DNA of 64,000 nucleotides, from contig JBHHUC010000003.1 of assembly GCA_046861395.1 (NCBI GenBank), forward strand, positions 6,381-70,380, written 5' to 3'. Under the pieces are notes generated by a model. That model ran no database searches. It saw only the letters and a list, made by a program, of their open reading frames with translations, and had not been told where the DNA came from. Position 1 is the stretch's first letter. Each line of letters begins with the position of its first letter. The position numbers and the translations under genes are program-made. Below, one piece after another: positions 16,669 to 60,060 of the stretch. This stretch comes from Fidelibacterota bacterium (GTDB taxonomy: Bacteria > Fidelibacterota > Marinisomatia > Marinisomatales > JABMOV01).

Positions 16669-17775
16669 ATGCAAAATCATTCCAGAATATTCTTTAGTCT
16701 GGTGCTAATTCCCTCTGTGGTAATGCTGGGTCAGCTAAGGTTAACCGTAAGCGAAACAATGCCTCTTCCAGGCGAAGGTCATCATATCTGGAGGGACAGC
16801 ACCGTCATCTCATGGTCTTCTCGCCAAGTATTTTTAGAGAATACCTCATTTTATTCTACGGAAAATTCAATCCGTTCGGTTGTTCCCCTGCCGATAGGAC
16901 AAGTTGGTATCGTGGAGGAAACATCACAGGATTACCTTTTACGTATTGTTGATCAACATGGAACGCCAGTTTTTACAACGACACTGGACGTTGCCGAAGA
17001 TTATGGATTTCCCCGGATTGCCACCCTTCCCGATGGCACCCCGCTGCTGCTGAATGCGGTGGAACAGAAAATCGGGATTGGCGGGACATCCCCTTCCCTG
17101 CAGTGGTTCCCCCTGAGAACCGAGGACCGGGATCATGAAAAACAATTACTGACCACTTCTTTTGAAAATGATCAATTTTTTCTGGGCATGCCTCAGGCCG
17201 CACCGGGTAACCGCCTTTCCGTTCTCTATACTTTAAAGCATCATTCTCGTCCCGTAGCAATGGATAGTATATCGCTCTCTTTGCCGTATTTTTTCTTCCC
17301 TTTTCTCGATCAACTGGCCATAATCGGTTCTGATTTTTCTAATGATTACAGCCCGGAGAATCGACTTATCCTGTATAATCCGAAAGCCAGAATGATTTCA
17401 GCCGAAGTTCCCCTGCCAACCATACCAGGGGATTTCCGGGTTAAAGATCAGAAATTATATTTAATCTACAATGATCGGTTGGAAATTCTGAACCACCGGG
17501 GTCAAATCCTGACCACGTATACCTTTCCTGCACTAGTCCCAGTGGATGTTGCAATAAACGATGAATCCATTTTTATCATTGGCGGTCGTCACCCGGATTA
17601 TATCGCCGGCCAGGTGGTTTACGATACGGCCCATCTCCTGCGCATCAGCAATCAGATTGATGAATATTTCATTCAAACAGACGGTCGAATAAGCGGCGGC
17701 AGAATCAACCGGCCCGGAAAGACCATTATCTTGTTAGCCAACCAACGCCTGTTACAGATTCTCATTCCTGATTGA
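16669..17775 (+). CDS. secreted hypothetical protein (first gene of the cell-wall operon)
   Basis: 368 aa with an N-terminal hydrophobic signal-like segment. No recognisable motif. Its stop overlaps the start of the M23 gene. Confidence 0.55.
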   Translation: MQNHSRIFFSLVLIPSVVMLGQLRLTVSETMPLPGEGHHIWRDSTVISWSSRQVFLENTSFYSTENSIRSVVPLPIGQVGIVEETSQDYLLRIVDQHGTPVFTTTLDVAEDYGFPRIATLPDGTPLLLNAVEQKIGIGGTSPSLQWFPLRTEDRDHEKQLLTTSFENDQFFLGMPQAAPGNRLSVLYTLKHHSRPVAMDSISLSLPYFFFPFLDQLAIIGSDFSNDYSPENRLILYNPKARMISAEVPLPTIPGDFRVKDQKLYLIYNDRLEILNHRGQILTTYTFPALVPVDVAINDESIFIIGGRHPDYIAGQVVYDTAHLLRISNQIDEYFIQTDGRISGGRINRPGKTIILLANQRLLQILIPD

Positions 17776-19877: not shown

Positions 19878-21310
19878 AAAAAATATTCCTCGTCACAATT
19901 CTTCTCATCCTCACCGGTTGTACCGTTCATCCCGTCTTTGATCCGGCCACCGGCCTGTTACCTCTGGTCCACCGGATCAATTCTGCCATCAAGGCCTCCG
20001 GACTGGAAACCAATATCGGAATTTCGGTACGGTCGGCCAGAACCGGCAAAACACTCTATGCCTATAATGATCGTCATCTTTTCAATCCGGCCAGTAATAA
20101 CAAGATATACACGGCCACGGCCGCTCTCCAGTTTCTGACGCCGGCCCATCGCTACCGTACCGGCCTCTACCTGCCACCGCAGCGGATGGCTTCCGATTCT
20201 CTCTCACGACTGACTCTGGTGGCGGCAGCCGATCCGGATTTCTATCCCCGGCACCTGGATTCCCTGGCAACAGTCCTGGCACAACATTTCAATGTTGTGG
20301 ATACGATCATGATTGATAATACGATTCTGGATACGGTTTATTATGGGAACGGCTGGATGTGGGACGAAGGCTCCGGCTGGTATTCGGCCCAGATCGATGG
20401 AATGATTTTCAATGACAATTGTGTTGATTTTCACGTTTCCAACGGGGAACCCGGGAGCCCGCCGGATATCACAATCATTCCCCCGACGCAATACATTCAG
20501 ATAGACAACAAGGCAGTTACGACCCACGACACGATAGATCTCGAGCCCTTTTCCATCCGGCGACACTGGTGGGAAGATAACAATAAGTTTGATGTCTGGG
20601 GGCACTTTTTCCGCACCGACAGCAATACGGCGGTGTATTACCGAAATATCCATGATCCGGCCCGATTCACGGGAACAGTCCTGAAAGAGATGTTAGAGGA
20701 AAAAGGCACTCTTGTCCGGGGACCGATCCTCGAACATTCTCTTTTCCCCGGTGATACGCTGTTTGCATATCATGAATCCGATTCCTTTCTGGTTTCCCTG
20801 GCAAACTTCCTGAAAGAAAGTGACAATCTGTCCGGTGAATCTTATCTGAAACTAATTGGCCATTATCAATCCGGGAATCCCGGATCATGGCCCGATGGAT
20901 TGCTGGCAACCAAATCCTTTTTGGCCGATTCCGTTGGTCTGGACACCAGTGCCTTTTCCTATGTGGACGGTTCGGGCATATCCCGCTATAATTATTCTGC
21001 CCCACGGCATTTCACACAATTGTTGTACTGGATCTATCAGCGACCAGGATTCAAACAATCCTTTTTGGCATCCCTGCCTGTAGGCGGATGGGATGGCACC
21101 CTGGAAAACCGTATGCAGACGGGACAGGAATCCCAATATGTCCATGCCAAGACGGGAACGTTATCCGGTGCAAGCTGTTTGTCGGGGTACATTCTGAAAC
21201 CGGGGAAAGAGCCGCTTGTTTTTTCCATCATGATGAATGGTTATGTGGACGAAGCCGGGCCCTACCGCGATCTGCAGGATGAAATCGTCAACATATTGTT
21301 ACAACGGTGA
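19874..21310 (+). CDS. dacB: D-alanyl-D-alanine carboxypeptidase/endopeptidase (PBP4, S13 family) lipoprotein
   Basis: Lipobox LILTGC. SxxK motif (PASNNK), KTGTL motif and DGSGIS. ATGA overlap with the M23 gene. Confidence 0.8.
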   Translation: MKKIFLVTILLILTGCTVHPVFDPATGLLPLVHRINSAIKASGLETNIGISVRSARTGKTLYAYNDRHLFNPASNNKIYTATAALQFLTPAHRYRTGLYLPPQRMASDSLSRLTLVAAADPDFYPRHLDSLATVLAQHFNVVDTIMIDNTILDTVYYGNGWMWDEGSGWYSAQIDGMIFNDNCVDFHVSNGEPGSPPDITIIPPTQYIQIDNKAVTTHDTIDLEPFSIRRHWWEDNNKFDVWGHFFRTDSNTAVYYRNIHDPARFTGTVLKEMLEEKGTLVRGPILEHSLFPGDTLFAYHESDSFLVSLANFLKESDNLSGESYLKLIGHYQSGNPGSWPDGLLATKSFLADSVGLDTSAFSYVDGSGISRYNYSAPRHFTQLLYWIYQRPGFKQSFLASLPVGGWDGTLENRMQTGQESQYVHAKTGTLSGASCLSGYILKPGKEPLVFSIMMNGYVDEAGPYRDLQDEIVNILLQR

Positions 21311-21314
21311 GGAC

Positions 21315-22253
21315 ATGGAAATCATGAAACCCAAAGCGATTCACAAAGGCGATACCATCGGCGTAGTCTGTCCGTCAAAATGGGCTCCCGAAGATCAGGT
21401 GTACGCTGTAAAGCAATTATTTGAAGAACAGGGATATCGTGTTGTGTTGGGAAAAACCCCCTTTTTACGGGAAAACCAATACGCCGGAACGCCCGAGGAA
21501 CGGGCTCGTGATATTGAAGCAATGTTTGCCAATCCCGAAATTGACGCCATTGTCTGTGCCCGGGGCGGTTACGGGGCCAATCGTGTCATTCCCTTACTCA
21601 ATTATGATTTGATCCGGGACAATCCGAAAATCTTCATGGGATACAGTGATATTACTGCCCTGATTCATTCCATCCGGCAACGGTCGGGATTCATCACATT
21701 TCACGGTCCTATGTTTGTCACCTATAAAAACGGATTCATCTCTTATAACTGGAATATCTGGGAAGCCGTGATCAGCGGAAAAGCTCCTCTGCGGATGGAA
21801 AATCCCCATGAATTGAAACCCCATATTCTGAAGCCGGGATCGGCGGAAGGTATGCTCTCCGGAGGAAACCTGACTCTGATCAACAATCGCCTGGGAACGC
21901 CGGAACAGATCGATTTCCGTGATACGATTCTATTCCTGGAAGATATTGACGAATATTTATATGCCTTTGACCGTTATCTGGTCCATTTACGCCAATCAGG
22001 CACGGTTGAATCCATCCGGGCTTTGATCGTGGGTGAACTGGTAGATATGAAGGATGATTCCATTCCCTTCGGGAAATCAACGGACGAAATCATTATGGAT
22101 GTTTTCGGAGACTTGAACATTCCCATCGTTTCCAACGTCGCCTGCGGTCACGGTGCTTATCAAATGACATTACCGGTTATACTGCCGGCAGAACTGAGTG
22201 TCACTTCAGATTCATTTGTCCTGACACTTCCCCAAGCTGCGGTTCGTCCTTAG
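21315..22253 (+). CDS. ldcA: LD-carboxypeptidase (S66, muramoyltetrapeptide carboxypeptidase)
   Basis: MEIMKPKAIHKGDTIGVVCPS start, and ARGGYG, GYSDITAL and EDIDE motifs typical of LdcA. The ATG at 21315 follows GGTGAGGA. The supplied ORF starts at 21237 inside dacB. Confidence 0.8.
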   Translation: MEIMKPKAIHKGDTIGVVCPSKWAPEDQVYAVKQLFEEQGYRVVLGKTPFLRENQYAGTPEERARDIEAMFANPEIDAIVCARGGYGANRVIPLLNYDLIRDNPKIFMGYSDITALIHSIRQRSGFITFHGPMFVTYKNGFISYNWNIWEAVISGKAPLRMENPHELKPHILKPGSAEGMLSGGNLTLINNRLGTPEQIDFRDTILFLEDIDEYLYAFDRYLVHLRQSGTVESIRALIVGELVDMKDDSIPFGKSTDEIIMDVFGDLNIPIVSNVACGHGAYQMTLPVILPAELSVTSDSFVLTLPQAAVRP

Positions 22254-25536: not shown

Positions 25537-26139
25537 ATGATGCTGAATTACATCTGGCTGGGAATGGTTATCATTGCCGTGGTGGTTGGGTCATTTACAG
25601 GGAATATTGATGCAGTCACCCAGGCGGCAATTGATATGTCAAAAACAGCCGTTACCATTGCCATTGGTTTAATCGGAATTATGGCTTTATGGCTGGGAGT
25701 CATGAAAATCGCCGAGGAATCCGGGTTGATAAGATTGATCGCACTGGGACTCAAACCAATTACGGTACGGTTATTTCCGGATGTACCGCCGGATCATCCT
25801 GCCATGGGATCGATTATCTTGAATATGGCAGCCAATATCCTGGGGCTTGGTAATGCAGCCACACCGCTGGGCCTCAAGGCGATGGAAGAATTGCAGGAAT
25901 TAAACGACGATAAGGAAACAGCATCGAATGCCATGATCACTTTCCTGGCGATTAATACCTCCAGTGTTCAGTTGATACTACCAGCCACGGTCATTGGACT
26001 GATGGGGACCGTAGCCAATCAAATATTTATTACCACCATTGTGGCTACCAGTATTTCTACAATCGTAGCGATTACAGCGGTCAAGTTCCTGGAAAAACGC
26101 AAACGATTCTCGTACCGGAAGGAAGAAGGGTCGATATGA
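25537..26139 (+). CDS. nucleoside-recognition (Gate) domain membrane protein, SpmA-like
   Basis: 200 aa, hydrophobic. MLNYIWLGMVIIA N-terminus and a LGNAATPLGLKAM motif as in SpmA-type proteins. Confidence 0.75.
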   Translation: MMLNYIWLGMVIIAVVVGSFTGNIDAVTQAAIDMSKTAVTIAIGLIGIMALWLGVMKIAEESGLIRLIALGLKPITVRLFPDVPPDHPAMGSIILNMAANILGLGNAATPLGLKAMEELQELNDDKETASNAMITFLAINTSSVQLILPATVIGLMGTVANQIFITTIVATSISTIVAITAVKFLEKRKRFSYRKEEGSI

Positions 26140-26681
26140 TAGATACCATCGTAGCGATTTTGAACGAAGGCTCCAAGTATATTATTCCCTTGTTGATCAC
26201 CGGAATTCCCGCTTATGGATTATGGGTGAAGAAGGTAAAAGTCTATGAAGTCTTTGTCGAAGGGGCCAAAGACGGATTCACCATTGCCGTACGTATCATT
26301 CCCTATCTCGTGGCCATCCTGGTGGCCATCGGAATGTTTCGTGCTTCCGGTGCCCTTGATCTCATGCTGAAAGGTCTGGCTCCTTTCCTTAATCTCATTG
26401 GATTCCCACCGGAAAACCTTCCGCTGGCCCTCATGCGTCCCTTGTCAGGAAGTGGATCTCTGGGATTGTTGACTGACCTGGTAAACGAATACGGAGCCGA
26501 CTCCCTGTTTGCCAAAATAGGAGCCACCATGTTCGGCTCGACCGAAACAACCTTCTACGTTCTGGCTGTTTATTTCGGTTCGGTAGGTATTAAGAAAACA
26601 AGACACGCATTACCGGCGGGATTACTGGCCGACCTGGCCGGTGTCCTGGCTGCTGTCTATATATGTAAACTTCTGTTTTAA
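26136..26681 (+). CDS. nucleoside-recognition domain membrane protein, SpmB-like
   Basis: 181 aa membrane protein with LMRPLSGSGSLG and TETTFYVLAVYFG motifs. 4-nt overlap with the SpmA-like gene. Confidence 0.75.
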   Translation: MIDTIVAILNEGSKYIIPLLITGIPAYGLWVKKVKVYEVFVEGAKDGFTIAVRIIPYLVAILVAIGMFRASGALDLMLKGLAPFLNLIGFPPENLPLALMRPLSGSGSLGLLTDLVNEYGADSLFAKIGATMFGSTETTFYVLAVYFGSVGIKKTRHALPAGLLADLAGVLAAVYICKLLF

Positions 26682-26684
26682 CCG

Positions 26685-29012
26685 CTATCCGGGAGTAATC
26701 TGGCCTTCCATGGATTTCTCCAGCCGTTGCGCCGTATCCAGAAATTCTGCCACGGTCAATTGCCGGATGAAAATAACGCCATGGGCGGCCCGTAATCGCG
26801 GATGTTCATTCCGGTACCAGAAATCGCGCCCCAAAATCAATTCCATCAACTGATGTTGCTCCACCCATATCTTTTGGGTAAGATCGCAAAACGGACCGTC
26901 CAGTTCATAGCTGGGATAGGAGGCATCTTTTTGACTCAGATAACAACTCATAAAGGTATCACGCATCACGGACATGGAATTCAGCGAAACGGGAACAATG
27001 ATATCGGCCTCTGAGGGATCAAAGCGATACCAGACATTACGATAACCCCAGATTTTCACCTGAGAAAGATCTTTCTCCTTTTGCCAGGAACGAAGTGCTT
27101 CGGCAATCGTCTGCAATACTTTGTAATGCGTATCGGGTCCGCTGCCTTCCGGATCCATGGCCAGGGTTATGACCGTAGGATTGACTTCGCGTAACAGATC
27201 CAGTACAGGTGAAACATCACGCTGTTTCTGCGGATTTTCCGTAAAGATATCGCCGGTATAGAACCCCAGTCGCAAATGATGAACATCCTTAACCTGAACG
27301 CCATAATGGGCCCACACCAGTTCTTCCTCAAATTCGCGGATCATACCCTTAAGACGCTGGACATCCGGCGTATTTTTCTCACCGTCATAACAACGATCGA
27401 GATAATTAATTACTTCCGTGATCTGATTTTCCGTTTCCTCAATGGTTCGGGTTCCGTAAATGTCCACAACAGCCCGGACCAGCCGGTGGCACAAGCCCCG
27501 CAACTGACCCTCGAAGTTCTTCGATGCAATCCGGTCCAGATAGTGATACACATCCTTGTCCTGCTTTTTCCCATATCCCGTCGTAAAAAAGTTGGGATAG
27601 CGCATCATTTGAATTTGTCCGGTACGGATAAATGATACTGTTTTCTCCAGTATTTTTTTTACATAATGATTTGTTACCGACGTAAATCCCGATGTCATAT
27701 TCACAAAGATGTTTTGATTGTCCGGCGAACGCACCAGGTGAATAACATGGGGTAAATACCCCAACATGATATCATCATGATGGGGGCCGGTATGCAGGAA
27801 TGTTTCATTGGAATAAGGTTTGATACCCAGGGCAATCTTTTCCCGGAAAGAGGTCAGGATGGAATCAATGACCGTGGGTGAAATATCCGGTATTTTCTGT
27901 CCCACCGGGTGCGAACGTAATTGTTCGGGATTCAATTTTGTCCCAAAGGAATGTAAATCCTGACAAACCTGGATGAATACTTTTTCAATCATTTTACGAG
28001 ACCAGGGCGCGGTGTTGACTTCCAGGGATCTGGAGTCCGTCAGAGCTGTGGCAGCGCCGCCGGTCAGGTAGAAACGTCCGTTTTCCAATCGCTGCAGAAC
28101 ACTGCCGGGGTATTTATTCTGCAGTGGATGTTCCAAAGCGTTTTTAACAATGGGGGCCTTGGCCTCTCCGGCAGCAATTATAATCGCGGTTGCATCTGGA
28201 TTGGCGGTAATGGTTTGCAGTCCGATGGTAATGACGAGGCGATTCCGTGATATTTCAATTCCCCCCAAATCTGTTGCAGCAGCGGCCTGGGTCTCAAAAT
28301 TGGTTTCGGTCAGACGGGTTGTGGAATGAACATCCGACCCTTTCACATTGAAGGCAATATGACCGTCGGGACCGATACCGCCTAGGAAAAAGCCAATGCC
28401 GCCCAGGTCCTGAATCCGGGATTCATATTCACTACACCATTGATCCACGAGGAAAATGGTTTCCTGCTGAATTTCTTCCAAGGAATTCCTGGGAGTTCGC
28501 ACTCTCAGGCTTAAATCAACATGATGATCCGGAAAAATGTCCAGCAAGGAATAGCCGGCCGGTGTAGGCAATTCATCACAGTCGATCAGGAGGGCCTTTG
28601 TTGCATCAAGTCCGAAACCGCGTATATAAAAACGCTGATCATAGTTATAGAAACTATTGTGCTGCTCCGGATTGATGGGATAGAATTCATCAATTTGAAC
28701 AAATCGTAGACTGGATAATTCAGGTTTATTGCCGGAATGAAAGCCGGATGATTCCCGTAACTCCGCCAAGCGGGGATTATCCCATTCTGACAGTAAATAC
28801 TGCACCCATTTAATGAAATATTCCGGTGTTTTCCCGGTAGGCAAACTAATCACACCTTCCGGATTTTCCGTGACCCACTCCAGGAAACGCAGCGCTGTCA
28901 GGAAGCCAAGTTGGGGAAAATTGTTGACTACAATGTAGGGTATCCGGGTCATGGGTGCCGGACGCCCTGACATCTGAAAAAATGTTTTTTCCACTGATGA
29001 TGTAAAATGCAT
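26685..29012 (-). CDS. fusion protein: glucosamine-6-phosphate deaminase/isomerase-like (NagB fold) N-terminal half + PIG-L/LmbE-like deacetylase C-terminal half
   Basis: 775 aa. NagB-type motifs in the N-terminal half: LPTGKTP, QIDEFYPI, GIGPDGHIAFN. PIG-L-like motif TGPHHDDIMLGY in the C-terminal half. Confidence 0.7.
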   Translation of the reverse strand: MHFTSSVEKTFFQMSGRPAPMTRIPYIVVNNFPQLGFLTALRFLEWVTENPEGVISLPTGKTPEYFIKWVQYLLSEWDNPRLAELRESSGFHSGNKPELSSLRFVQIDEFYPINPEQHNSFYNYDQRFYIRGFGLDATKALLIDCDELPTPAGYSLLDIFPDHHVDLSLRVRTPRNSLEEIQQETIFLVDQWCSEYESRIQDLGGIGFFLGGIGPDGHIAFNVKGSDVHSTTRLTETNFETQAAAATDLGGIEISRNRLVITIGLQTITANPDATAIIIAAGEAKAPIVKNALEHPLQNKYPGSVLQRLENGRFYLTGGAATALTDSRSLEVNTAPWSRKMIEKVFIQVCQDLHSFGTKLNPEQLRSHPVGQKIPDISPTVIDSILTSFREKIALGIKPYSNETFLHTGPHHDDIMLGYLPHVIHLVRSPDNQNIFVNMTSGFTSVTNHYVKKILEKTVSFIRTGQIQMMRYPNFFTTGYGKKQDKDVYHYLDRIASKNFEGQLRGLCHRLVRAVVDIYGTRTIEETENQITEVINYLDRCYDGEKNTPDVQRLKGMIREFEEELVWAHYGVQVKDVHHLRLGFYTGDIFTENPQKQRDVSPVLDLLREVNPTVITLAMDPEGSGPDTHYKVLQTIAEALRSWQKEKDLSQVKIWGYRNVWYRFDPSEADIIVPVSLNSMSVMRDTFMSCYLSQKDASYPSYELDGPFCDLTQKIWVEQHQLMELILGRDFWYRNEHPRLRAAHGVIFIRQLTVAEFLDTAQRLEKSMEGQITPG

Positions 29013-29048
29013 AGTTTAAATTAAATCAAATATTCAATGCTATTCCGC

Positions 29049-30191
29049 CTATAAACACAATTTACCAAGAATGACCTGGGCACCTGCTCCTGTCACGGTA
29101 GGCAGATTCGCCGGGATGCCTTTCACAAAGGCCGCGGCCAGAAGAGCAAAGACAAAAGCTTCCTTGCCATCAATATCAATATTGAAATCCGACGAGAACG
29201 ATATACCGCTTTCTCCCACTCGTTGCTTCAGCCCGGCAATGACGGCCGAATGATGAGCGCCTCCTCCGCTGATAATCAGACGATATTCCGCATCCTTTAT
29301 GAACCGGCGGCAACCAATGATAATTGTTTCCGCCGTAAAGGCCGCCAGCGTGGACAGACAATCGGGGACGGACAACGACATCAATTCCGGCCAATGGGAT
29401 TCAATCCAGGATTCGCCATACCGGTCACGTCCAGTGGATTTAGGCGGGTCCTTCTGAATAAATTCATCTTCCTGGATCCATTGCTCGACCAATTCCATCT
29501 TCGGAGTCCCCAGGCCGGCCGTTCTTCCCTTTTCATCCACACCACTTCGTCCCAAACGTTGCCACGCCTCATCCAATAACGCCATTCCGGGTCCCGTATC
29601 GCATCCTGTCGTTTCCCTCTGATCTTTCCAGAGTACGGTAATATTGCTGATTCCCCCAATATTCACACAGATTCTGTTTTCGGTTGGCGTAAAGAATACG
29701 CGTTGATCGATCCAGGGAACCAGCGGTGCGCCGCAACCGCCGGCTGCAATATCATTGGAACGGAAATCATGAATCACCGGAACCTCAAATGTCCGTGCCA
29801 GATAGGAGACTTCACCAATTTGCAACGATGCAATGCCATGCTCATGATAAATGGTCTGACCGTGGGATCCGATTAAATCAAGTTCTGTTCTTTCCGCCGG
29901 ACTCAGTTGTTCGCGAACCGTTGCGGCGACCCAGCGACCCAACCGATGGTGTAATTCGCCTACCGAATCATTCGGGCCGCGGACGGCAGCAACGATGGCA
30001 TTTTTTAGAGATGAGGGATACGGAACGGTTTTCGACCAGTGAATGGAATAATGCAAGGTGGCCGGAGTCAGAGAAAGGATGCAATAGCATAAATCAAGGC
30101 CATCCATGGATGTCCCTGACATCAATCCCAGGGTCGTAATTTTGTCCTGACAATTTAACCTGGCCAGGATGGTGTCCGGTGATTCAACCAT
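29049..30191 (-). CDS. anmK: anhydro-N-acetylmuramic acid kinase
   Basis: 380 aa with GLMSGTSMDGLD near the N-terminus and ISGGGAHH near the C-terminus, typical of AnmK. Confidence 0.85.
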   Translation of the reverse strand: MVESPDTILARLNCQDKITTLGLMSGTSMDGLDLCYCILSLTPATLHYSIHWSKTVPYPSSLKNAIVAAVRGPNDSVGELHHRLGRWVAATVREQLSPAERTELDLIGSHGQTIYHEHGIASLQIGEVSYLARTFEVPVIHDFRSNDIAAGGCGAPLVPWIDQRVFFTPTENRICVNIGGISNITVLWKDQRETTGCDTGPGMALLDEAWQRLGRSGVDEKGRTAGLGTPKMELVEQWIQEDEFIQKDPPKSTGRDRYGESWIESHWPELMSLSVPDCLSTLAAFTAETIIIGCRRFIKDAEYRLIISGGGAHHSAVIAGLKQRVGESGISFSSDFNIDIDGKEAFVFALLAAAFVKGIPANLPTVTGAGAQVILGKLCL

Positions 30192-30227
30192 TCTGGTCCA
30201 CCGGGAAAAGAGTAATAGTTCCGTTGA

Positions 30228-31271
30228 TTAAAGTTTGAATCCCAGAGATACGCGCTGGACGCCTTTCAGACGCTGAAAGTCGGTGTAGGAATAATCGATT
30301 TTTATCACGGTAGCCGATCCCCAGATCCGATAATTAATGCCAAGACCATAGGACAATCCTTCTTCGGCAGTATCGCGGAACAGATTGGCATAACCTGTGC
30401 GGAGGAAGAACATATTGTTTAATGCCAATTCTACACCGGCATTAACGGCTTCGGTATTATCATTGGGATGGATCGCGTCCAGGGCGAAACTCAAGCGGGT
30501 AACATCGGTATTAATCAATTCGCTGGACACGCCAACACGAAACATCAGCGGTAAGGGAAAGCGGTCCGTTTTATACCGTGCATCAACGTACTCTACTGTT
30601 CCCAGGTTGTCGGGATCGGGGTCGATGCTGATATCCAAGTCCCGCCCATCCAGTCTCATGCCGCCGCCATAGTTGGAAATACTGGCTCCCAGCCGGGTAT
30701 CTCCAAACGGTGTGATAAAGAGTATTCCCAGATCACCGGCCACAGTGGTGGCTTTCGAATGCCAGATATTTTCATGAATCATTTTTACCGTACCACCAAG
30801 CGAAAAATGATCAGTCAGCTTCCTGGCATATGTCAGATTCAATGCCAACCCGCCGGCTTCCCAGTATTCGCCGGTACCTTCCGGATTTTCGACGGTTCGA
30901 ACGATATCTCGGGGAACACTCAGACTGTTAACGGAGAGACCCAACACACCGAAACGTCCCGTATTAATGGTGGCGGCAGCAAAGTTCACATCCGTATTGA
31001 CCAACCAGGCATTGTTGACTACGACCAGATGAAGTCCTTGCAGGCCGGCGATTCCAGCCGGATTCCAAAAGATTGAGCCAATATCACCGGACATGGCTAC
31101 GAAGGCATTTCCCATTGATGATCCTCTTGCATCGGCTCCGATTTTCAGAAATGAAGCTGCCGTAGTCCCGGTCTTGGTAATGGTTTCCGTAATGGACTGA
31201 GCTTGAAGGCCGATCCAACATAATCCGATTAATAATATTGTTATTTTTATATTTTGTGTGAATTTCATCAT
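30228..31271 (-). CDS. PorV/PorQ-family (FadL-like) outer-membrane beta-barrel protein
   Basis: 347 aa with a signal peptide. TGTTAASFLKIGADARGSSMGNAFVAMSGDIGSIFWNPAGIA matches the conserved N-terminal PorV/PorQ pattern. Alternating beta-strand sequence, ending ...SLGFKL. 4-nt overlap with the upstream partner gene. Confidence 0.65.
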   Translation of the reverse strand: MMKFTQNIKITILLIGLCWIGLQAQSITETITKTGTTAASFLKIGADARGSSMGNAFVAMSGDIGSIFWNPAGIAGLQGLHLVVVNNAWLVNTDVNFAAATINTGRFGVLGLSVNSLSVPRDIVRTVENPEGTGEYWEAGGLALNLTYARKLTDHFSLGGTVKMIHENIWHSKATTVAGDLGILFITPFGDTRLGASISNYGGGMRLDGRDLDISIDPDPDNLGTVEYVDARYKTDRFPLPLMFRVGVSSELINTDVTRLSFALDAIHPNDNTEAVNAGVELALNNMFFLRTGYANLFRDTAEEGLSYGLGINYRIWGSATVIKIDYSYTDFQRLKGVQRVSLGFKL

Positions 31272-34200
31272 TTTATCACCCCAAACCGTCCGATTTTTTC
31301 CCCCAATTCCCCGGCATCCACGTGATACAGGTAGACACCGTAGGCGATGGGGAAGTTATCTTTTGTCGTCAAATCCCAATATTCCTTGCCGTCATCTATG
31401 GCGGAATGATGTTCCAATGTTTCCACCAATTCTCCGCTCAGGGTATAAATTCTGATAGTACAATCCTCAGGCAAGTGATTGAAGTACAACCGGCGCTGCC
31501 CCCGGTCAATCCGGTTTTGCAAATCAGGTTTTTCAATAACATTCGTCACGACATAGGGATTGGGAACGACGGAAATGTTATCCAGCTCCCTTCTTGCCTT
31601 ACTGTTGTCCACAAAGGAGGCGGCCGTGGTAAATGTAAATTTATCTTCGGACGTAAACGGACGGGTGGTGGCAATGTAATACACATCACCAGCACCTGGC
31701 AGTATCGTATCACCAGAAGCAGGATAATTCATTGTGAATTCCCAGCTGGAGGTGGATGTTTCATCACCCTGAAGTATAATGACCCGTTCTCCGGGATTCC
31801 ATAAACTGTCGGCCGACCCCAATTCCAAGACAATCATTTTCCGTTTTTCAGGAACCATCCCCTCTGATACTTCCCATATTTCGAAATTGGTTTTAATATA
31901 TCCCTGACTGGGTCGTGAACTACTGTCAACCAGGGTGTCAAAAAACCGTACTTCATAGTCTGCGGGATATTTTTTATTCTCCACATTATTAAAGGGTTTA
32001 ACCGTGACCACCAGGTTGGCATCGCTGGTTGACGTCCATCCCATCCGGGATGTATCCAGGGCTAGGATTTCGTCATGTACGAAGATTTTCATTCCGTCAA
32101 TCAATGGATTGGACTCTTCATTGTTCAACAAGGTGCTGGCATAAACGCCATAATATTGATATGTAGCATAATAGGTCCCCAAATGAGTCAATGTTGAATC
32201 ACCCAGGATTTTCCCCGCTTCGGCATTCAGGGTATAGGCAGTATCTATATTGCCGTCAGCATCACGCAGGACAAAAGTGCTATCAACAATATGAGTATTG
32301 GGCAGCTGCACATACTGCCCATGACGAATGGTGACTTCCGTTTCAATCGGTTTCATATCACGGATGTAATATGCAGTTGGATTTTCAGTGAATGAGATTT
32401 CGAATTCATTATCATCCTCTATTTTTCGTGGATCGACGATTTCCATGACAATGTCACCGGTTCCTACGCCGCCGGTATGCAGTATGGCATCATTTACGAT
32501 GGATCCGGTTACGAATCCGGCAGCCGGTGAGCGTGATGTCACTTTAACTGTATTCACATCAAACAGGGTCTCATTCCGTTCCGGATCCACAGTAATCCTT
32601 TTCGAGCATTCCACCGGAGCTATTTTCAGAGAATCATCGCCATGGTCATACGAAACAACGGCATAATAATATTCCTGTCCGTTAATGACATTATTCGAAT
32701 CCACGAATGTATGACGTATTCCGGTGTTATTCCCCAAATTGTAAAATACACCACGGCCGGTGTACGGTACGGTACTCAGTCCGGAATATTCATTGTCCAA
32801 ATCGAACCTGGCCGGGGCACCGGTGGCCATCGTCAGCGGTTCAAACAAGAACCGGGAACCGTTGGCATCCGTAATGGTCTGTTGATCCAGAAACTGGGGA
32901 TCTGTACTGCGATAAATCACGTATCCTTCGAAATCATATTTCTCCGTCAGAGGATCCAGCGATGATTCCGCCACATCATCCCAATATAGCATGACTTTTT
33001 CATCTCCTGGAACGGCCACGACATTCGGTTTTTCCGGTGGTTTGGCAAATTCATAATTCCGTTCGTAAATCTCCTGCGCCGTCAGGGCATTCAGGGTCAA
33101 ATCTTCGAAAGATTGTCCCACCAGCAAAGCAATGGAAAAGCGACGGGCTTCACCAGCCGGAAAATCAAATGGTCCGGAACTGTAAAGGAAAATATAATCC
33201 CCCGGAGTGTTGGAATTGGAAGTATCAAATTCCCCTGGGGTGAGAAAGTTGGTATAAAAATAATCATCATTGCGGGCGGCATTCTGAGCCAGGAAAGGCG
33301 GAGCCTTAAATCCGGTGAGTCCCACCATATCCGCTTCATCCAAATCGGTCCATTCAAAATTCGGTTCACCAGGAATTCTGATATCGAACGGATCGCCGGC
33401 CGTGGGCATACCGTCCCCTTCACCGGCATCTCCTGTATTGGGCAGGCCGTCCAGCCCCACATCATCTTTATCTATATCCCAATCGCTATCGTTGTCAATT
33501 CCATCACTGCGACTTTCATCTATCATACCGTCATTGTCATTGTCAATGCCGTCATGTGGGTCACCGGGGCTTTCCAGAAATTTATACCCGAAATATCCGG
33601 GAGTTTTCCCGGCCACATCGCTCAGCCCGTCGGCATCCCAAGCATAGACCATGTTGATATCACGGTCAAAAAATGATAGATCGTCGGCCCAGTCCGAAGG
33701 TCCTCCGATATGCGGGTCGCCCCACATCCCGAAGATAACATTCTTGAGTTCTTTTTCACTTTTATTGGTCACCTTATAGATCAGAAATATAATGTCCTCT
33801 GCCAGAGGATTGGACCACTGGTAATAGCGACATTCAATTTCCACGCCCAGACCCAGGCGGGATGAATCGGACGGAAAGGGATAATATTCAAATTCCCGGT
33901 TATTCCGGTCGTCAATGACGAAAAAGGCTTCCAGATCGGCGTTTGATGACCCTTGGCGCAATGCTCCGGGCCATTGGTATTCCTGTAAATTCGGATTATA
34001 CCACCCGGCCGGCCAGCTGTCCGGTTTTCCATCCCCGTCCCGGTCCACATCACCGGACGTGGGTAAATGATCGCTATTGGGATCCGCATAGGGAACACCG
34101 AGATCACTATGGGCCAACGGGTCCCAACCCCAGAATTCGGTATTGTCGGGAGAAACTTCCGGATAAGATACAAGACCTTCACTGATTACCCTGGCAACCC

Positions 34201-34675
34201 AGACGGTATCGCCCTCAGCCGTGACAACAGGATTCCCATTTTCATCCAGTTTAATAAAGGCATCCTGATGGCTATGGGGTGCGACTTCGACCTCGGCAGC
34301 CACGATTGGTCCGAATTCATAGCCATAGCCCAGGCCTTCCCATACAATATCGGTGATTCGATTGCCGGGACTTGAAATGGAACCATAATTCCAGATTTCC
34401 GATGTAATCTTATTTCCGTTGATAATGGCCCATTGACGACGAAGGGTTTGACTATCCTCCAGCGTTCTGCCCAATTTCAATGACAACTGTTCCAGCCAGG
34501 ACATATATCGGTCATAATCCCGATCCGACCATTCTTTATTCACTCCCTGAGCATAATATTCCGGACTACCTTTGTGAATTCGTTTATTCTTCGCGCTGAG
34601 CGGCCCGGACATTATAGTCGCAATAAACCCGATCAGGACTAGAACGCAGATAATATTTACACTTTTTTTCATCAT
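31268..34675 (-). CDS. large secreted TBDR-partner protein (uncharacterised family) with Asp-rich Ca-binding repeats, FN3-like segment and divergent T9SS-like C-terminal domain
   Basis: 1135 aa with a type I signal peptide. Shares core (LGVEIECRYYQWSNP...IYKVTNKS), FN3-like (GYVIYRS...YYYAVVSYD) and tail (VVPNPY...CTIRIYTLSGELV...GVYLYHV...GRFGVIK) segments with 49956..52088 and 58003..60048. Confidence 0.6.
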   Translation of the reverse strand: MMKKSVNIICVLVLIGFIATIMSGPLSAKNKRIHKGSPEYYAQGVNKEWSDRDYDRYMSWLEQLSLKLGRTLEDSQTLRRQWAIINGNKITSEIWNYGSISSPGNRITDIVWEGLGYGYEFGPIVAAEVEVAPHSHQDAFIKLDENGNPVVTAEGDTVWVARVISEGLVSYPEVSPDNTEFWGWDPLAHSDLGVPYADPNSDHLPTSGDVDRDGDGKPDSWPAGWYNPNLQEYQWPGALRQGSSNADLEAFFVIDDRNNREFEYYPFPSDSSRLGLGVEIECRYYQWSNPLAEDIIFLIYKVTNKSEKELKNVIFGMWGDPHIGGPSDWADDLSFFDRDINMVYAWDADGLSDVAGKTPGYFGYKFLESPGDPHDGIDNDNDGMIDESRSDGIDNDSDWDIDKDDVGLDGLPNTGDAGEGDGMPTAGDPFDIRIPGEPNFEWTDLDEADMVGLTGFKAPPFLAQNAARNDDYFYTNFLTPGEFDTSNSNTPGDYIFLYSSGPFDFPAGEARRFSIALLVGQSFEDLTLNALTAQEIYERNYEFAKPPEKPNVVAVPGDEKVMLYWDDVAESSLDPLTEKYDFEGYVIYRSTDPQFLDQQTITDANGSRFLFEPLTMATGAPARFDLDNEYSGLSTVPYTGRGVFYNLGNNTGIRHTFVDSNNVINGQEYYYAVVSYDHGDDSLKIAPVECSKRITVDPERNETLFDVNTVKVTSRSPAAGFVTGSIVNDAILHTGGVGTGDIVMEIVDPRKIEDDNEFEISFTENPTAYYIRDMKPIETEVTIRHGQYVQLPNTHIVDSTFVLRDADGNIDTAYTLNAEAGKILGDSTLTHLGTYYATYQYYGVYASTLLNNEESNPLIDGMKIFVHDEILALDTSRMGWTSTSDANLVVTVKPFNNVENKKYPADYEVRFFDTLVDSSSRPSQGYIKTNFEIWEVSEGMVPEKRKMIVLELGSADSLWNPGERVIILQGDETSTSSWEFTMNYPASGDTILPGAGDVYYIATTRPFTSEDKFTFTTAASFVDNSKARRELDNISVVPNPYVVTNVIEKPDLQNRIDRGQRRLYFNHLPEDCTIRIYTLSGELVETLEHHSAIDDGKEYWDLTTKDNFPIAYGVYLYHVDAGELGEKIGRFGVIK

Positions 34676-34693: not shown

Positions 34694-37474
34694 TTAAAAA
34701 TTCATTGCAATGCCCAAGGTAACCAGGCGGGGAGAGCGATAGAAATTCGGTCTGGTCTGGTATTCTTTCCAGGTATGAATACCCGGCTCCCCATAATGGT
34801 TCTTGAAAGCATCGGTTTCCTGTTGGGACTGATTGACAAAGGTATATCCGGCTCGACCCGTATCGTTAAACACGTAACGCTCATTGCGCCGGTCGAACAG
34901 ATTATATATTTTGGCGAAGATGCTGTAGTGTATGCCAATTATCTTCAGTGATTTATTCATAAGCAGGTCAACGGATTGCTGCCAAGGTTTGCGGCCGCTA
35001 TTTGGATCAGGGTTGATGTTCTGCAGTTCCGTATATTTCGGATAATCCGGTGTATAGGGCCATCCGCTGGATAGTTTGGTAATTATGCTGACGCTCCAGT
35101 TATTCGGTTCACTGAACGTCGTAGTAGCATTAATAATGTGGGACTGGTCCCAACTAAGCGGTACAATGTTTTTTTCTTCTTCTATCCCGGAAATCGCATT
35201 CAGGAAAAAGGACCCACTTTCCACTGCATTACCGTCCGTGACCTGATACGTGTAATCGAGAAAAGCTGAGAGTTTCGTCACGGGGTCCCGGGCTTTTGTG
35301 AGGCTGAAAGTAAATCCTTTTACTGTGCCATAATCCTTGTTCAGATAAATACTGTATGATTGGGGACCTGACGGGCCTTTGTATTTAATTGTCTGCGATG
35401 CCAATAAATCGCGAATATCCTTGTAAAAAATATTTGTTTCAATGGCCAGGGTCGGAGTGAGTTGCTGCTGCAAACCGAATTCATAGGTAACAGTTTTTTC
35501 CGGGTTCAGATCAGCATAGCCGAGCAGCGGTGATCCTGATACACCAATGATGGGTTCCCGGAAAAGATAGCGAAGCGTGGGCATTTGATAGAAATGGCCA
35601 TAGGAAAAATGGAAGATACCCTGATCGGTAATGGGTAATGCCACCCCAATCCGCGGTGACCACATTTGTTTCGGTTTCGCTATTTTCCTTTCTCCGCTGG
35701 GATTCAAAAGATCCGCAATGTATTCCGCATTCGGATCGAATGAATCATAGCGCAATCCAATGTTCATGATGAAGTTCTGATATTCCAGCTTATCCTGCAC
35801 GTACCCGGAAATAAACTTGGCTGTCTTGTTATAATGGCTGTGGCTGGAGGTCGAATTTTCCGGAAGAATGGTCGGGATACGATACTTTACACCATCGAAC
35901 AGGATTGTGAAAATGCGTTCATCCAATTCGTCGATCCGATAGCTCAAACCAGACTTCAATTCATGTCGGGGATTAATCTGACTGGTAATATCGAACTTTC
36001 CCCCCTTTGACAGGGAACTGCGGTAACTATGGGTACGCTCCGTCCCACCGAAATTGAAAGTAGCTGAACTGGGTTGTCCAAATATCCTCAGTGATTCATA
36101 ATAACCGTGGTTGTACAATTCATATTGTTCCCTACCCAAAGAATCAAGCGTCGCCACGATGTAGAATCCGGTACGATCCGGATCAACGCTGGAATATGCC
36201 TTATCAAGATCAATAGGGTCCGAGTAATAATGTTTGTAATCCGTGTTACCGGAAAATACATTTAATTCGTAAAAGGTTTTGGCACTGAGAGCGTGATTGA
36301 ATTTCAGAGAATAATTATTGTTGTTTGATTCCTGATCACCTACGCCGTCAGGATTGTATTTATAGCTGTGGATATAACTCTTGTAATTACTTCTCCCATG
36401 TAAATATTGTCCGGATATTTTAATCATGGGAGAAATTTTATAGGTAAGCTTAAAGAGGATATCCGACCCTTGCGATGTATTCATGGGAACGATGCTGGAA
36501 TCCCCGCCCATCTGATATTCATATTCACCGGAAATGGGGAAATAGGCCCAATCACCGGGCGTATGCTCCCGGACTCCATAATAATACCCCTGATTGTCCC
36601 GGTATTTTCCGGTCAGATTGAAGGTGATGCGGCGACCTAAATTTATCACGGGAACAGGTCCATTCAACGTACCTTCAATAACATATCGGGCAGTGGGATT
36701 GACATCATCAATATTTAGATAAATATCCGTATCATTGGATATATAATCACCAGAATAGGCCGTCAGATTGCCATGATATTGTTTCCCACCTTCTTTGATC
36801 TGCAGGTTGACAACACCGCTCATGGCATTTCCGTATTCGGCATTGAACGCCCCGCTGATAACTTTCATTTCTTCGAGAGCCTGGTTGGATACATTAATCG
36901 CCAGACTATTGGTAAAAAATGGATTGGAGACGGAAACACCATCAATATAATACGCAACTTCATTATCGCGTCCACCACGGATATGCAAGGCACCATTGGC
37001 CCCCACATTCACGCCGGCCTGTGTTGTGAGTACCCCCAAGAAATTTTCCACGGGCATGGCCTTGATTTCTTCCGCCGTGGTTGTTTTTTGTGAAGCAGTC
37101 AAATCTTTCTGAATCATGGGGCGCTCCGCCACAACCGTTACTTCCTGGCCCTCCAGGACTTCAGGGGTCAGAGCAAAGTTTTGAATGGTTGTCTGATCCA
37201 GACTCACACGAATATCGGTTACTTTTATTGTGGTATAACCGATATAGGTAGCTTTAACGTTATACGTCCCGGATGGTATGTTCAGAATGGTATAATTCCC
37301 ATTTGCATCGGAGGCCGTTCCTACGGATAAATCTTCCACCAGGATATTTACACCGATTAGCGGATCATTCGTTTCAGCATCGATAACCCGGCCTGAAATC
37401 TTTCCTCCACCGGCATAACTCACGGTCATTCCCATAACCAGCATTAAGAAGGGTAACCATTGTGTTTTTCTCAT
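34694..37474 (-). CDS. TonB-dependent receptor with N-terminal carboxypeptidase-regulatory-like domain
   Basis: 926 aa. GKISGRVIDAETNDPLIGVNILVE...GNYTILNIPSGTYNVKATYIGY (CarboxypepD_reg-like). Plug motifs LHIRGGRDNEVAYYIDGVSV and SGAFNAEYGNAMSGVVNL. Long beta-barrel ending in F. Confidence 0.85.
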   Translation of the reverse strand: MRKTQWLPFLMLVMGMTVSYAGGGKISGRVIDAETNDPLIGVNILVEDLSVGTASDANGNYTILNIPSGTYNVKATYIGYTTIKVTDIRVSLDQTTIQNFALTPEVLEGQEVTVVAERPMIQKDLTASQKTTTAEEIKAMPVENFLGVLTTQAGVNVGANGALHIRGGRDNEVAYYIDGVSVSNPFFTNSLAINVSNQALEEMKVISGAFNAEYGNAMSGVVNLQIKEGGKQYHGNLTAYSGDYISNDTDIYLNIDDVNPTARYVIEGTLNGPVPVINLGRRITFNLTGKYRDNQGYYYGVREHTPGDWAYFPISGEYEYQMGGDSSIVPMNTSQGSDILFKLTYKISPMIKISGQYLHGRSNYKSYIHSYKYNPDGVGDQESNNNNYSLKFNHALSAKTFYELNVFSGNTDYKHYYSDPIDLDKAYSSVDPDRTGFYIVATLDSLGREQYELYNHGYYESLRIFGQPSSATFNFGGTERTHSYRSSLSKGGKFDITSQINPRHELKSGLSYRIDELDERIFTILFDGVKYRIPTILPENSTSSHSHYNKTAKFISGYVQDKLEYQNFIMNIGLRYDSFDPNAEYIADLLNPSGERKIAKPKQMWSPRIGVALPITDQGIFHFSYGHFYQMPTLRYLFREPIIGVSGSPLLGYADLNPEKTVTYEFGLQQQLTPTLAIETNIFYKDIRDLLASQTIKYKGPSGPQSYSIYLNKDYGTVKGFTFSLTKARDPVTKLSAFLDYTYQVTDGNAVESGSFFLNAISGIEEEKNIVPLSWDQSHIINATTTFSEPNNWSVSIITKLSSGWPYTPDYPKYTELQNINPDPNSGRKPWQQSVDLLMNKSLKIIGIHYSIFAKIYNLFDRRNERYVFNDTGRAGYTFVNQSQQETDAFKNHYGEPGIHTWKEYQTRPNFYRSPRLVTLGIAMNF

Positions 37475-49842: not shown

Positions 49843-49955
49843 TGCAACTCCCTGCGTTAGTTTGGTTTTAAGATGAATAGCATTATGAAATATTTATCGT
49901 TGCAAGGTAACACTAAATCGAAATATTTTCAATTGATTTATGCTCCTTATGCTCC

Positions 49956-52088: not shown

Positions 52089-52091
52089 AAA

Positions 52092-55109: not shown

Positions 55110-55118
55110 TATAAAAGC

Positions 55119-56435: not shown

Positions 56436-56446
56436 CCTTTTATCAC

Positions 56447-57466: not shown

Positions 57467-57469
57467 CGC

Positions 57470-57991: not shown

Positions 57992-58002
57992 GGTTTCTTC
58001 CC

Positions 58003-60048: not shown

Positions 60049-60060
60049 ACAAAACCTTCT

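Follow-up and report, generated by a model that had tools for sequence, protein, structure and literature searches.

Introduction

Murein recycling, as known from E. coli and Pseudomonas, relies on AmpG, NagZ, AmpD, LdcA, AnmK, MurQ, NagA and NagB, and leads from 1,6-anhydro-N-acetylmuramic acid (anhMurNAc) through N-acetylmuramic acid 6-phosphate (MurNAc-6-P) and N-acetylglucosamine 6-phosphate (GlcNAc-6-P) to fructose-6-phosphate (Fru-6-P). Here, we describe a 64-kb stretch of DNA from a Fidelibacterota (Marinimicrobia, SAR406) bacterium, hereafter the window, in which anmK and a gene coding for a fusion of a NagB-like to an LmbE-like domain (hereafter the fusion) directly follow a module built around a TonB-dependent receptor (TBDR). 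The predicted chemistry is that of the recycling pathway: the window contains AnmK and LdcA, and clusters of related genomes contain NagZ-like glycoside hydrolases of family GH3, an AmiA-like amidase analogous to AmpD, AmpG-like permeases of the major facilitator superfamily (MFS) and MurQ. In contrast to the recycling pathway, these genes are tied to TBDRs and to hydrolases secreted by the type IX secretion system (T9SS), which points at exogenous wall material. The clusters also lack NagA, whose place is probably taken by the LmbE-like half of the fusion, while NamZ, MpaA and LysA are frequent additions.

Two other described systems bear comparison. In B. subtilis and Tannerella, N-acetylmuramic acid (MurNAc) is salvaged by means of a NagZ, AmiE, NamZ and MurQ operon, in which NamZ is an exo-MurNAc-ase (PMC8054146). 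The loci described here likewise combine the exo-acting NamZ with an amidase and MurQ, suited to peptide-free glycan; whereas the Gram-positive enzymes are simply secreted and uptake proceeds through a phosphotransferase system, here T9SS, TBDRs and kinases (AnmK, ROK) would take these parts. The SusC/SusD polysaccharide utilization loci of Bacteroidota are similar in that a TBDR with CarbopepD_reg and Plug domains stands beside a surface partner and secreted enzymes for one polymer; the enzymes linked to the present module also concern one polymer (Amidase_2/3, NamZ, GHL10, M23 and GH18). Unlike in these loci, SusD is replaced by a partner of 680-1135 aa that matches no family and carries a divergent T9SS C-terminal domain (CTD), a PorV/PorQ paralogue comes next, the enzymes are T9SS cargo and not lipoproteins, and the TBDR scores far below the SusC/RagA cut-off.

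Peptidoglycan and its D-amino acids form a sizeable, slowly turned-over part of marine dissolved and particulate organic matter, and SAR406/Marinimicrobia rank with the most abundant bacteria of the deep ocean. To our knowledge, almost nothing is known about their diet, and a locus coupling wall hydrolases, an importer and amino-sugar catabolism gives a concrete and testable answer to this question. An earlier survey of SAR406 genomes listed generic peptidoglycan carbohydrate-active enzymes and many "Por secretion" genes (bioRxiv 10.1101/095471). The only representative of the phylum in culture, Fidelibacter multiformis IA91, is reported to obtain peptidoglycan, carbon and energy from exogenous muropeptides, a reliance that has been traced back to the phylum's ancestor (PMC11652737). 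The likeness extends from the use of muropeptides as wall, carbon and energy source to the release of D-lactate when MurNAc-6-P is converted to GlcNAc-6-P; the isolate differs in being a subsurface anaerobe of class AB16 without peptidoglycan synthesis (PMC11652737), while the window lineage is distinct and probably marine. Our literature search found no TBDR-based peptidoglycan utilization locus, no SusD-less architecture of TBDR, T9SS partner and PorV paralogue, and no functional context for fusions of about 770 aa such as the present one. Wall scavenging in this phylum is thus known physiology, while the architecture of the locus appears undescribed.

The initial annotation of the window had proposed that peptidoglycan is degraded outside the cell, that its fragments enter through TBDRs and that their amino sugars are catabolized. 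Two comparative tests, one on 80 loci selected by the TBDR partner and one on 88 loci selected by the fusion, support this proposal at the level of comparative genomics, that is, by genomic association. We consider it likely that the window is a large, conserved and rearrangeable peptidoglycan utilization supercluster of Marinimicrobia (SAR406/Fidelibacterota).

The TBDR module is linked to peptidoglycan genes

Nearly all open reading frames (ORFs) of at least 150 aa in the window were annotated with Pfam and NCBIfam, and direct tblastn searches were added. The first set of relatives comprises 80 metagenome loci, found by scanning contigs with an alignment of the 1135-aa-type TBDR partner alone. 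In these loci, TBDR, partner and PorV-like gene keep an invariant order: the TBDR is linked to the partner in 73-75 loci, the PorV-like gene is present in 77-78, and the partner always lies between the two.

Around this triple, the commonest gene codes for an FG-GAP T9SS cargo (45/80). A 431-aa Amidase_2 (MurNAc-L-Ala amidase) with a T9SS CTD is found in 38 of the 80 loci and, in 25, comes immediately downstream of the PorV-like gene and in the same orientation. It is followed in frequency by NamZ/GH171 (31/80), GH18 with a T9SS CTD (24/80), LysA (23/80), DacB (12/80), M15 (11/80), a pair of Gate-domain proteins (9-10/80), LdcA and ROK (9/80 each), M23 with a T9SS CTD (7/80), GHL10 (6/80) and an AmiA-like amidase (3/80). 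The fusion itself occurs in two loci and AnmK in one. A wall-hydrolase or recycling marker is present in 57 of the 80 loci and a strictly peptidoglycan-specific one in 54; in most loci without a marker, the downstream sequence ends within 2.5 kb. The linkage between module and peptidoglycan genes persists in at least four arrangements and crosses a phylum boundary, in an Ignavibacteriaceae metagenome-assembled genome (MAG) described below (L069).

In the window, the module opens with a SusC-like TBDR (TBDR1; Table 1) matched by TIGR04056 (SusC/RagA) over its N-terminal 200 aa only, with 79 bits (cut-off 368). No SusD-family lipoprotein lies beside TBDR1, as the gene downstream has neither a SusD nor any other family match. 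This gene encodes the 1135-aa partner, for which Pfam and NCBIfam hold no family and which is probably a surface substrate-binding protein in the place of SusD. The third gene product scores 195 bits with NF033709 (cut-off 90) and 72 bits with the PorV model NF033710 (cut-off 250), and also misses the PorQ equivalog; by these profile scores, it is a paralogue and not the core T9SS PorV.

The window holds two more TBDR modules, paralogous to the first, at 47494..63222, where the gene order is SGL/NHL T9SS cargo, 710-aa partner, TBDR2, TIG lipoprotein, PorV-like 2, 178-aa lipoprotein, 681-aa partner and TBDR3. Compared along their entire length, the 710- and 681-aa partners show 37% identity, and they share with the 1135-aa partner a C-terminal domain of about 120 aa (31268-31600, 49956-50300 and 58003-58350). 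This domain resembles a type-A T9SS sorting domain into which about 15 aa have been inserted. Neither Pfam nor NCBIfam recognizes it, but comparison with bona fide T9SS CTDs using hhalign gave 95% probability (E 4e-8) over 73 columns. The module is so predicted to consist of a SusC-like TBDR, a T9SS-exported partner and a PorV/PorQ paralogue, without SusD, and the paralogue probably keeps its cognate partner at the surface beside the receptor. Proteins with type-B CTDs and their cognate PorP/SprF show a somewhat similar pairing.

Several observations on module components stand apart from this comparison. Each module closes with its own PorV/PorQ paralogue, which suggests cargo-specific PorV-like anchors. 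At about aa 376-430 of the 1135-aa partner (window 33400-33560) lie Asp-rich repeats (DGIDNDNDGMIDE...DGDWD...) of the thrombospondin-type-3, calcium-binding type. Among relatives, LysA, a diaminopimelate decarboxylase, is convergent on the TBDR module next to NamZ, sometimes with MpaA or M15 (L003 7000-8973; L090-L163), and this suggests that meso-diaminopimelate of the stem peptides could be salvaged to lysine. In some module loci, the cargo is instead a GH5+CBM6 or a CotH-kinase-domain protein with a T9SS tag (L138 13681-15663; L159 8771-11824).

Genes for amino-sugar salvage surround the fusion in four phyla

The second set was selected by the fusion and covers Marinimicrobia, Bacteroidota, Ignavibacteriota and Gemmatimonadota; it comprised 84 loci for neighbor clustering and annotation of cluster representatives, and 88 in a later tblastn survey. 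Peptidoglycan and N-acetylglucosamine (GlcNAc) salvage genes predominate among the neighbors. A ROK sugar kinase is present in 36-38 fusion loci, usually adjoining and on the same strand. Next come AmpG-like MFS (10-13 loci) and NagP-like MFS permeases (11-12), NamZ exo-N-acetylmuramidase (9), GH3 NagZ (8-9), SpoIID (8), GH20 (7), a FAD/Fe-S D-lactate-dehydrogenase-like oxidase (6), an enolase-superfamily protein resembling L-Ala-D/L-Glu epimerase (5-6) and GHL10 (5). A NagA-like gene was found nearby in only one of 168 loci by tblastn with one E. coli NagA query; the MurQ search likewise used an E. coli sequence, and its hit was verified with NCBIfam. This neighbor pattern fits a fusion that would supply the deacetylase and deaminase steps after the kinase.

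In Marinimicrobia ARRANGEMENTS, the same gene set is shuffled, yet kept together. Two loci (L086 and L089) have the order TBDR, partner, PorV-like, PD40, Amidase_3-T9SS, AnmK and fusion; on the opposite strand, L086 carries the Gate pair, LdcA, DacB and an M23-like T9SS protein with a faint Pfam match, while the flank of L089 stops at DacB. In L081, the module is followed by a 1254-aa metallo-beta-lactamase-fold protein, a 288-aa protein and then the fusion. In three loci (L001, L087 and L088), the fusion immediately precedes a TBDR module of the second kind (TBDR-partner-PorV-like-TIG-TBDR), the kind found at 47.5-63.2 kb in the window. A further arrangement (L083 and L084) runs ROK, esterase, GH3+beta-lactamase (NagZ-like), AmiA-like amidase, AnmK, U32 and fusion, with M14-T9SS, beta-lactamase, amino-acid permease, LdcA, M15, the Gate pair, LdcA, DacB and a T9SS-tagged protein on the other strand; the latter protein matches the M23-T9SS protein of the window by tblastn. 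The GH3+beta-lactamase architecture is that of a Rhodothermus NagZ implicated in murein turnover (PMC6987092). Finally, NamZ, a T9SS cargo, MpaA (equivalog) and LysA face an AmiA-like-fusion pair in L003.

Outside Marinimicrobia, the Ignavibacteriaceae MAG (L069) carries a MurQ equivalog (385 bits, cut-off 302) at the head of the string MurQ, FG-GAP, TBDR, 1155-aa partner and PorV-like. This string is arranged divergently to the fusion and to a gene for an L-Ala-D/L-Glu epimerase-like protein, and a T9SS-tagged GHL10 is encoded nearby. As an equivalog MurQ thus lies beside the fusion, the fusion was ruled out as a replacement for MurQ. As a side observation, the Peptidase_U32 gene between anmK and the fusion in L083 and L084 (8661-9998) has no obvious role in murein recycling.

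The fusion combines NagB-like and LmbE-like folds

The N-terminal half of the fusion (about aa 20-335) is a domain resembling NagB-fold sugar-6-phosphate deaminases/isomerases, and the C-terminal half (about aa 400-770) resembles metal-dependent deacetylases of the LmbE/PIG-L fold, with a helical insertion of about 100 aa. Family profiles score below their cut-offs: Glucosamine_iso (PF01182) 16.6 bits against a gathering cut-off of 27, PIG-L (PF02585) 17.5 against 28.2, and NCBIfam PRK02122 199.9 against 384 (5.5e-59, in two partial stretches). A sequence search of the PDB matched NagB entries at 5e-16, while the sequence profile of the C-terminal half found no LmbE chain among PDB sequences; the relationship of this half to LmbE is therefore visible by fold comparison only.

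A first AlphaFold model, built with 12 close homologues, had a pLDDT of 68 and a disordered NagB core, and also matched teicoplanin deacetylases and MshB. It was replaced by a model based on 28 diverse family sequences (pLDDT 93, pTM 0.91). In Foldseek searches, the N-terminal half of the fusion matched NagB (1ne7, E 2.7e-15, TM 0.81; 2bkv, TM 0.90), and glucosamine 6-phosphate (GlcN-6-P) deaminases ranked above 6-phosphogluconolactonases. The C-terminal half matched LmbE-family deacetylases (5bmo, E 3.5e-4, TM 0.65; 8bgo, E 3.7e-4, TM 0.62), and its structural relatives include LnmX and the Pyrococcus diacetylchitobiose deacetylase. The label of a NagB-like/PIG-L fusion given by the initial annotation was thus right, both folds being seen in the pLDDT-93 model despite the sub-threshold Pfam scores.

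Residue conservation was assessed on 28 diverse members of the fusion family (26-59% identity). The NagB catalytic and phosphate positions D108, D216, H218, R233 and K/R258 are kept in 20-27 of the 28 members, and N222 is conserved too; the reference residues of E. coli NagB are Asp72, Asp141, His143, Glu148, Arg172 and Lys208. At the sequence level, the LmbE metal motif P410-H411-H412-D413-D414 is found in 22-27 members and the distal H629 in 24. No signal peptide is predicted in the fusion or in AnmK, while all envelope components have one. Regarding the start site, residues 5-11 are conserved among homologues, with E8 and F11 invariant, which favors the upstream ATG at 29012 (775 aa) over the database call of 762 aa from Met14 (28974-29012).

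Among 8,000 scored candidates, 6,824 homologues of the fusion have E <= 1e-5, and the nearest 120 are all about 771 aa long with at least 62% identity. Homologues bear the names Candidatus Marinimicrobia or Fidelibacterota, and the family of about 770 aa extends at 49-60% identity to Bacteroidota (Algoriphagus, Echinicola, Labilibaculum and Maribellus), Ignavibacteriota and Gemmatimonadota. Across four phyla, its members make up a conserved clade of their own (49-70% identity), and clustering at 50% gave 277 clusters at E <= 1e-30. The PRK02122 fusions (about 650 aa), named "glucosamine-6-phosphate deaminase-like protein" in NCBIfam, have the same two-domain order and give a clear partial match, whereas the present family is longer, at about 770 aa, with an extended N-terminal half and the helical insertion in the deacetylase half; on these profile and length comparisons, it is treated as a sister family of PRK02122, not a member. 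The literature searched held no experimental characterization of either family. The Pyrococcus LmbE-type diacetylchitobiose deacetylase (8bgo, 4xm0) is a metal-dependent de-N-acetylase of GlcNAc sugars and is among the nearest structures; it differs in its low identity (about 11%), in standing alone and in acting on an unphosphorylated disaccharide. The fusion of the LmbE-like half to a NagB fold that binds sugar 6-phosphates suggests a phosphorylated substrate.

Because of its folds, its conserved residues, its adjacency to ROK and the absence of NagA, the fusion is predicted to be both GlcNAc-6-P deacetylase and GlcN-6-P deaminase, turning GlcNAc-6-P into Fru-6-P. The chances that this prediction, drawn from sequence comparison and a model, is right appear evenly balanced.

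AnmK and the minus-strand string

PF03702 matches AnmK at 278 bits (cut-off 24) over aa 20-378 of 380, and AnmK structures (3cqy, 8bre and 3qbw) are its top solved relatives at 173-179 bits (1e-51), ahead of levoglucosan kinases at 131-146 bits (1e-41). Its family identity is unambiguous by these matches, and the label anmK assigned earlier is retained. The NCBIfam equivalog level is missed, the best model being NF007148 with 338 bits against a cut-off of 387; this shortfall may reflect a divergent phylum, and lowers the confidence in the name only slightly. AnmK orthologues adjoin the NagZ-like GH3 and AmiA-like amidase in L083, and Amidase_3 in L086 and L089.

Both genes proved to have exactly the coordinates first assigned to them (Table 1), the fusion with an ATG start, and two gaps of 36 nt (29013-29048 and 30192-30227) separate fusion from anmK and anmK from the PorV-like gene. 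The minus-strand string TBDR-partner-PorV-like-anmK-fusion likewise stands as described, its ORFs lying on the same strand with short gaps; upstream of AnmK, the genes are separated by a 4-nt overlap or gaps of 18-131 nt. The two 36-nt spacers have unrelated sequences, so their equal length is a coincidence. Judging only by the short gaps, one transcript probably covers TBDR module 1, anmK and the fusion in the window lineage.

A proposed route for foreign peptidoglycan

Based on these data, the following route can be proposed. Outside the cell, T9SS-exported Amidase_3 (Amidase_2 in most relatives), M23 and GHL10 would strip the stem peptides and cut the glycan of foreign wall, as their domains and T9SS tags suggest. 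Regarding GHL10, we take E. coli DigH to belong to this family. DigH degrades glycans denuded by amidases (PMC12288456). Fragments would then pass the outer membrane through SusC-like TBDRs, each with its T9SS-exported surface partner and its own PorV/PorQ paralogue, a role suggested by the conserved gene order and linkage. In the periplasm, DacB and LdcA, whose family membership is clear, would trim the peptides, and at the inner membrane the Gate pair is a candidate permease, as are AmpG-like permeases in other phyla. In the cytoplasm, AnmK, assigned by family, would phosphorylate anhMurNAc to MurNAc-6-P, and MurQ, encoded outside the window but linked to the module in the Ignavibacteriaceae MAG, would yield GlcNAc-6-P and D-lactate. 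The LmbE-like domain of the fusion would deacetylate GlcNAc-6-P in the stead of NagA, and the NagB-like domain would convert GlcN-6-P to Fru-6-P. AnmK and the fusion would thus form the cytoplasmic end of the string.

Several points weigh against this route. The whole case rests on gene neighborhood, and the partner-selected loci (56-76% identity) are kin by descent, so that their counts do not represent 80 independent events; despite this kinship, the several distinct arrangements argue that the linkage is retained. As the initial annotation had noted, murQ, nagZ, ampG and nagA were found by neither ORF annotation nor tblastn in the window, and the same holds for namZ and a ROK kinase; the missing steps of the MurNAc/GlcNAc pathway (NagZ/NamZ, MurQ and a permease) are seen only in the clusters of relatives. 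anmK adjoins the fusion in none of 80 GTDB species loci, and a conserved "AnmK-fusion cassette" was dropped for this reason. The adjacency is seen in just three Marinimicrobia arrangements, and the position of both genes next to a TBDR module is lineage-specific, being confined to the window, L086 and L089. anhMurNAc arises from lytic transglycosylases, none of which is evident among the secreted enzymes of the window, and AnmK may mainly serve turnover of the own wall or the use of fragments shed by growing neighbors. Scans for sigma-70 promoters and intrinsic terminators (25.3-41.2 kb) returned counts at the level of shuffled sequence and nothing in the 36-nt gaps. Regarding the fusion, position 223, equivalent to Glu148 of E. 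coli NagB, is hydrophobic in most of the 28 members, and a canonical 255-aa NagB adjoins the fusion in six Bacteroidales loci; in L064-L067 and L073, it follows the fusion directly downstream. It may therefore be that the NagB-like domain is not the GlcN-6-P deaminase, or not the sole one, and the funneling of GlcN-6-P into glycolysis by this divergent domain is assumed; a canonical 255-aa NagB from a neighboring locus has Val at the Glu148-equivalent position as well. Finally, GH18 and GH20 neighbors would suit chitin too, and the loci with GH5+CBM6 or CotH-kinase cargo indicate that some copies of the module need not target peptidoglycan.

Three other explanations have to be considered. The locus could serve housekeeping only, with AnmK, the fusion, LdcA and DacB recycling the cell's own murein while the TBDR modules import unrelated material such as proteins or algal glycans. 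This would agree with the E. coli pathway, in which AnmK acts on anhydro-muropeptides released from the own wall by lytic transglycosylases, with the variable position of anmK described above, with the absence of a nearby TBDR from most Bacteroidota copies of the fusion, and with FG-GAP and SGL/NHL T9SS cargoes that have no evident peptidoglycan function. However, the peptidoglycan-specific genes of the 54 partner-selected loci, including the 25 T9SS amidases directly after the module, were recovered with the module as the sole bait, T9SS cargo would act at or beyond the surface where the own sacculus is out of reach, and murQ heads the module in another phylum, in a linkage that outlasts several rearrangements. 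Housekeeping recycling as the only function is thus unlikely. A locus for chitin or another GlcNAc-containing glycan, in which the TBDRs would import chito-oligosaccharides or glycoprotein glycans, ROK and the fusion catabolize GlcNAc and the peptidoglycan enzymes be bystanders, seems decidedly unlikely: GH18 with a T9SS CTD is indeed frequent in module loci, GH20, NagP-like MFS and ROK kinase adjoin the fusion in Bacteroidota, and archaeal diacetylchitobiose deacetylases are among the nearest structures to the LmbE-like half, but the commonest linked genes (MurNAc-L-Ala amidases, NamZ, MpaA, LdcA, M15, DacB, LysA, AnmK and MurQ) have no role in chitin use and the window contains no GH18, GH19 or GH20 catalytic domain.

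Similarly, the T9SS-secreted amidase, M23 and GHL10 could be weapons that lyse competitors or prey, with uptake being secondary. Several different wall hydrolases carry T9SS tags, and secreted amidases and M23 endopeptidases are typical bacteriolytic effectors. Against such a function, no immunity genes or toxin-delivery systems lie nearby, and close ties to TBDR importers and to catabolic enzymes of the cytoplasm are in keeping with harvesting; moreover, the cultured relative reportedly depends on fragments from growing bacteria and not on killing (PMC11652737). Antagonism, which is compatible with the use of foreign peptidoglycan, is therefore highly improbable as the main explanation. All three explanations fit the module-centered test poorly.

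The utilization of foreign peptidoglycan thus remains the favored explanation. If correct, it extends the muropeptide dependence of a single isolate to uncultured marine lineages, defines a SusD-less, T9SS-dependent architecture of TBDR uptake, and assigns a function to the widespread fusion family (about 770 aa) that databases label inconsistently. A broader proposal, which we put forward tentatively and with somewhat less than even confidence, is that Marinimicrobia and at least some Ignavibacteriota possess a SusD-independent harvesting machine specialized for foreign peptidoglycan and supplied by T9SS-secreted amidases, that the fusion forms its NagA-independent channel into glycolysis, and that SAR406 is a principal consumer of wall debris in the dark ocean.

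Other genes of the window

The positions of the features discussed are collected in Table 1. The further enzymes listed by the initial annotation (M23-T9SS, DacB/PBP4, LdcA, GHL10, Amidase_3-T9SS and a SPOR protein) are all encoded in the window.

Table 1. Position and strand of the features discussed in the text, in window coordinates
Feature	Position	Strand	Remarks
M23 peptidoglycan endopeptidase-like protein with T9SS CTD	17772..19877	+	
DacB/PBP4-type D-Ala-D-Ala carboxy/endopeptidase (S13), lipoprotein (lipobox)	19874..21310	+	TIGR00666, 194 bits vs 108
LdcA-type LD-carboxypeptidase (S66)	21237..22253	+	true start probably near 21315
Two small Gate-domain membrane proteins	25537..26681	+	convergent on the fusion
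NagB-LmbE fusion	26685..29012	-	775 aa, cytoplasmic, terminal gene of the minus-strand string
AnmK	29049..30191	-	380 aa, PF03702
PorV/PorQ-family outer-membrane beta-barrel	30228..31271	-	third gene of TBDR module 1
TBDR1 partner	31268..34675	-	1135 aa, secreted, signal peptide, matches no family
SusC-like TBDR 1 (CarbopepD_reg + Plug + barrel)	34694..37474	-	
FG-GAP repeat protein with T9SS CTD	37606..40719	-	usual gene upstream of TBDR1, in 45/80 partner-selected loci
GHL10 (PF02638) glycosidase-like ORF and Big_5/T9SS-CTD ORF	40896..43956	+	ORFs 40896..42578 and 42493..43956
Amidase_3 (N-acetylmuramoyl-L-alanine amidase) + Big_5 + T9SS CTD	43961..46462	-	predicted secreted peptidoglycan amidase
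PD40/TolB-like beta-propeller	46459..47394	-	4-nt overlap with the start of the amidase gene
Two further paralogous TBDR modules	47494..63222	-	

The Gate pair is syntenic with DacB and LdcA across Marinimicrobia (L081, L083, L085, L086, L087 and about ten partner-selected loci, including L162-L166). Because it travels with these two genes across the phylum, it is a candidate for the inner-membrane permease subunits of wall fragments or peptides. The association of a Gate pair with DacB also recalls the dacB-spmA-spmB operon of B. subtilis.

The GHL10 and Big_5 ORFs overlap in different frames, and the second has no signal peptide. At their junction (42497-42505), one base more or less in a GAAAAC run lets the Big_5 domain read through, and the Ignavibacteriaceae homologue of GHL10 is one 795-aa protein with a T9SS CTD. 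A single T9SS cargo gene of about 1020 aa thus probably lies behind both ORFs, interrupted either by a real frameshift or by an error in the sequence.

Scans for repeats and tRNAs returned only coding repeats of the FG-GAP type and not a single tRNA. The interval from LdcA to the Gate genes (22250-25410, minus strand) holds, as in L081, genes for a 708-aa ADP-forming acetyl-CoA synthetase-like protein and a DRTGG/AAA_26 protein; a link of the former to acetate released by deacetylation is pure speculation. The pair formed by the PD40 beta-propeller and the Amidase_3-T9SS protein recurs in L080, L086 and L089, that is, in Marinimicrobia and a Bacteroidota MAG, and the beta-propeller may be a partner or regulator of the amidase.

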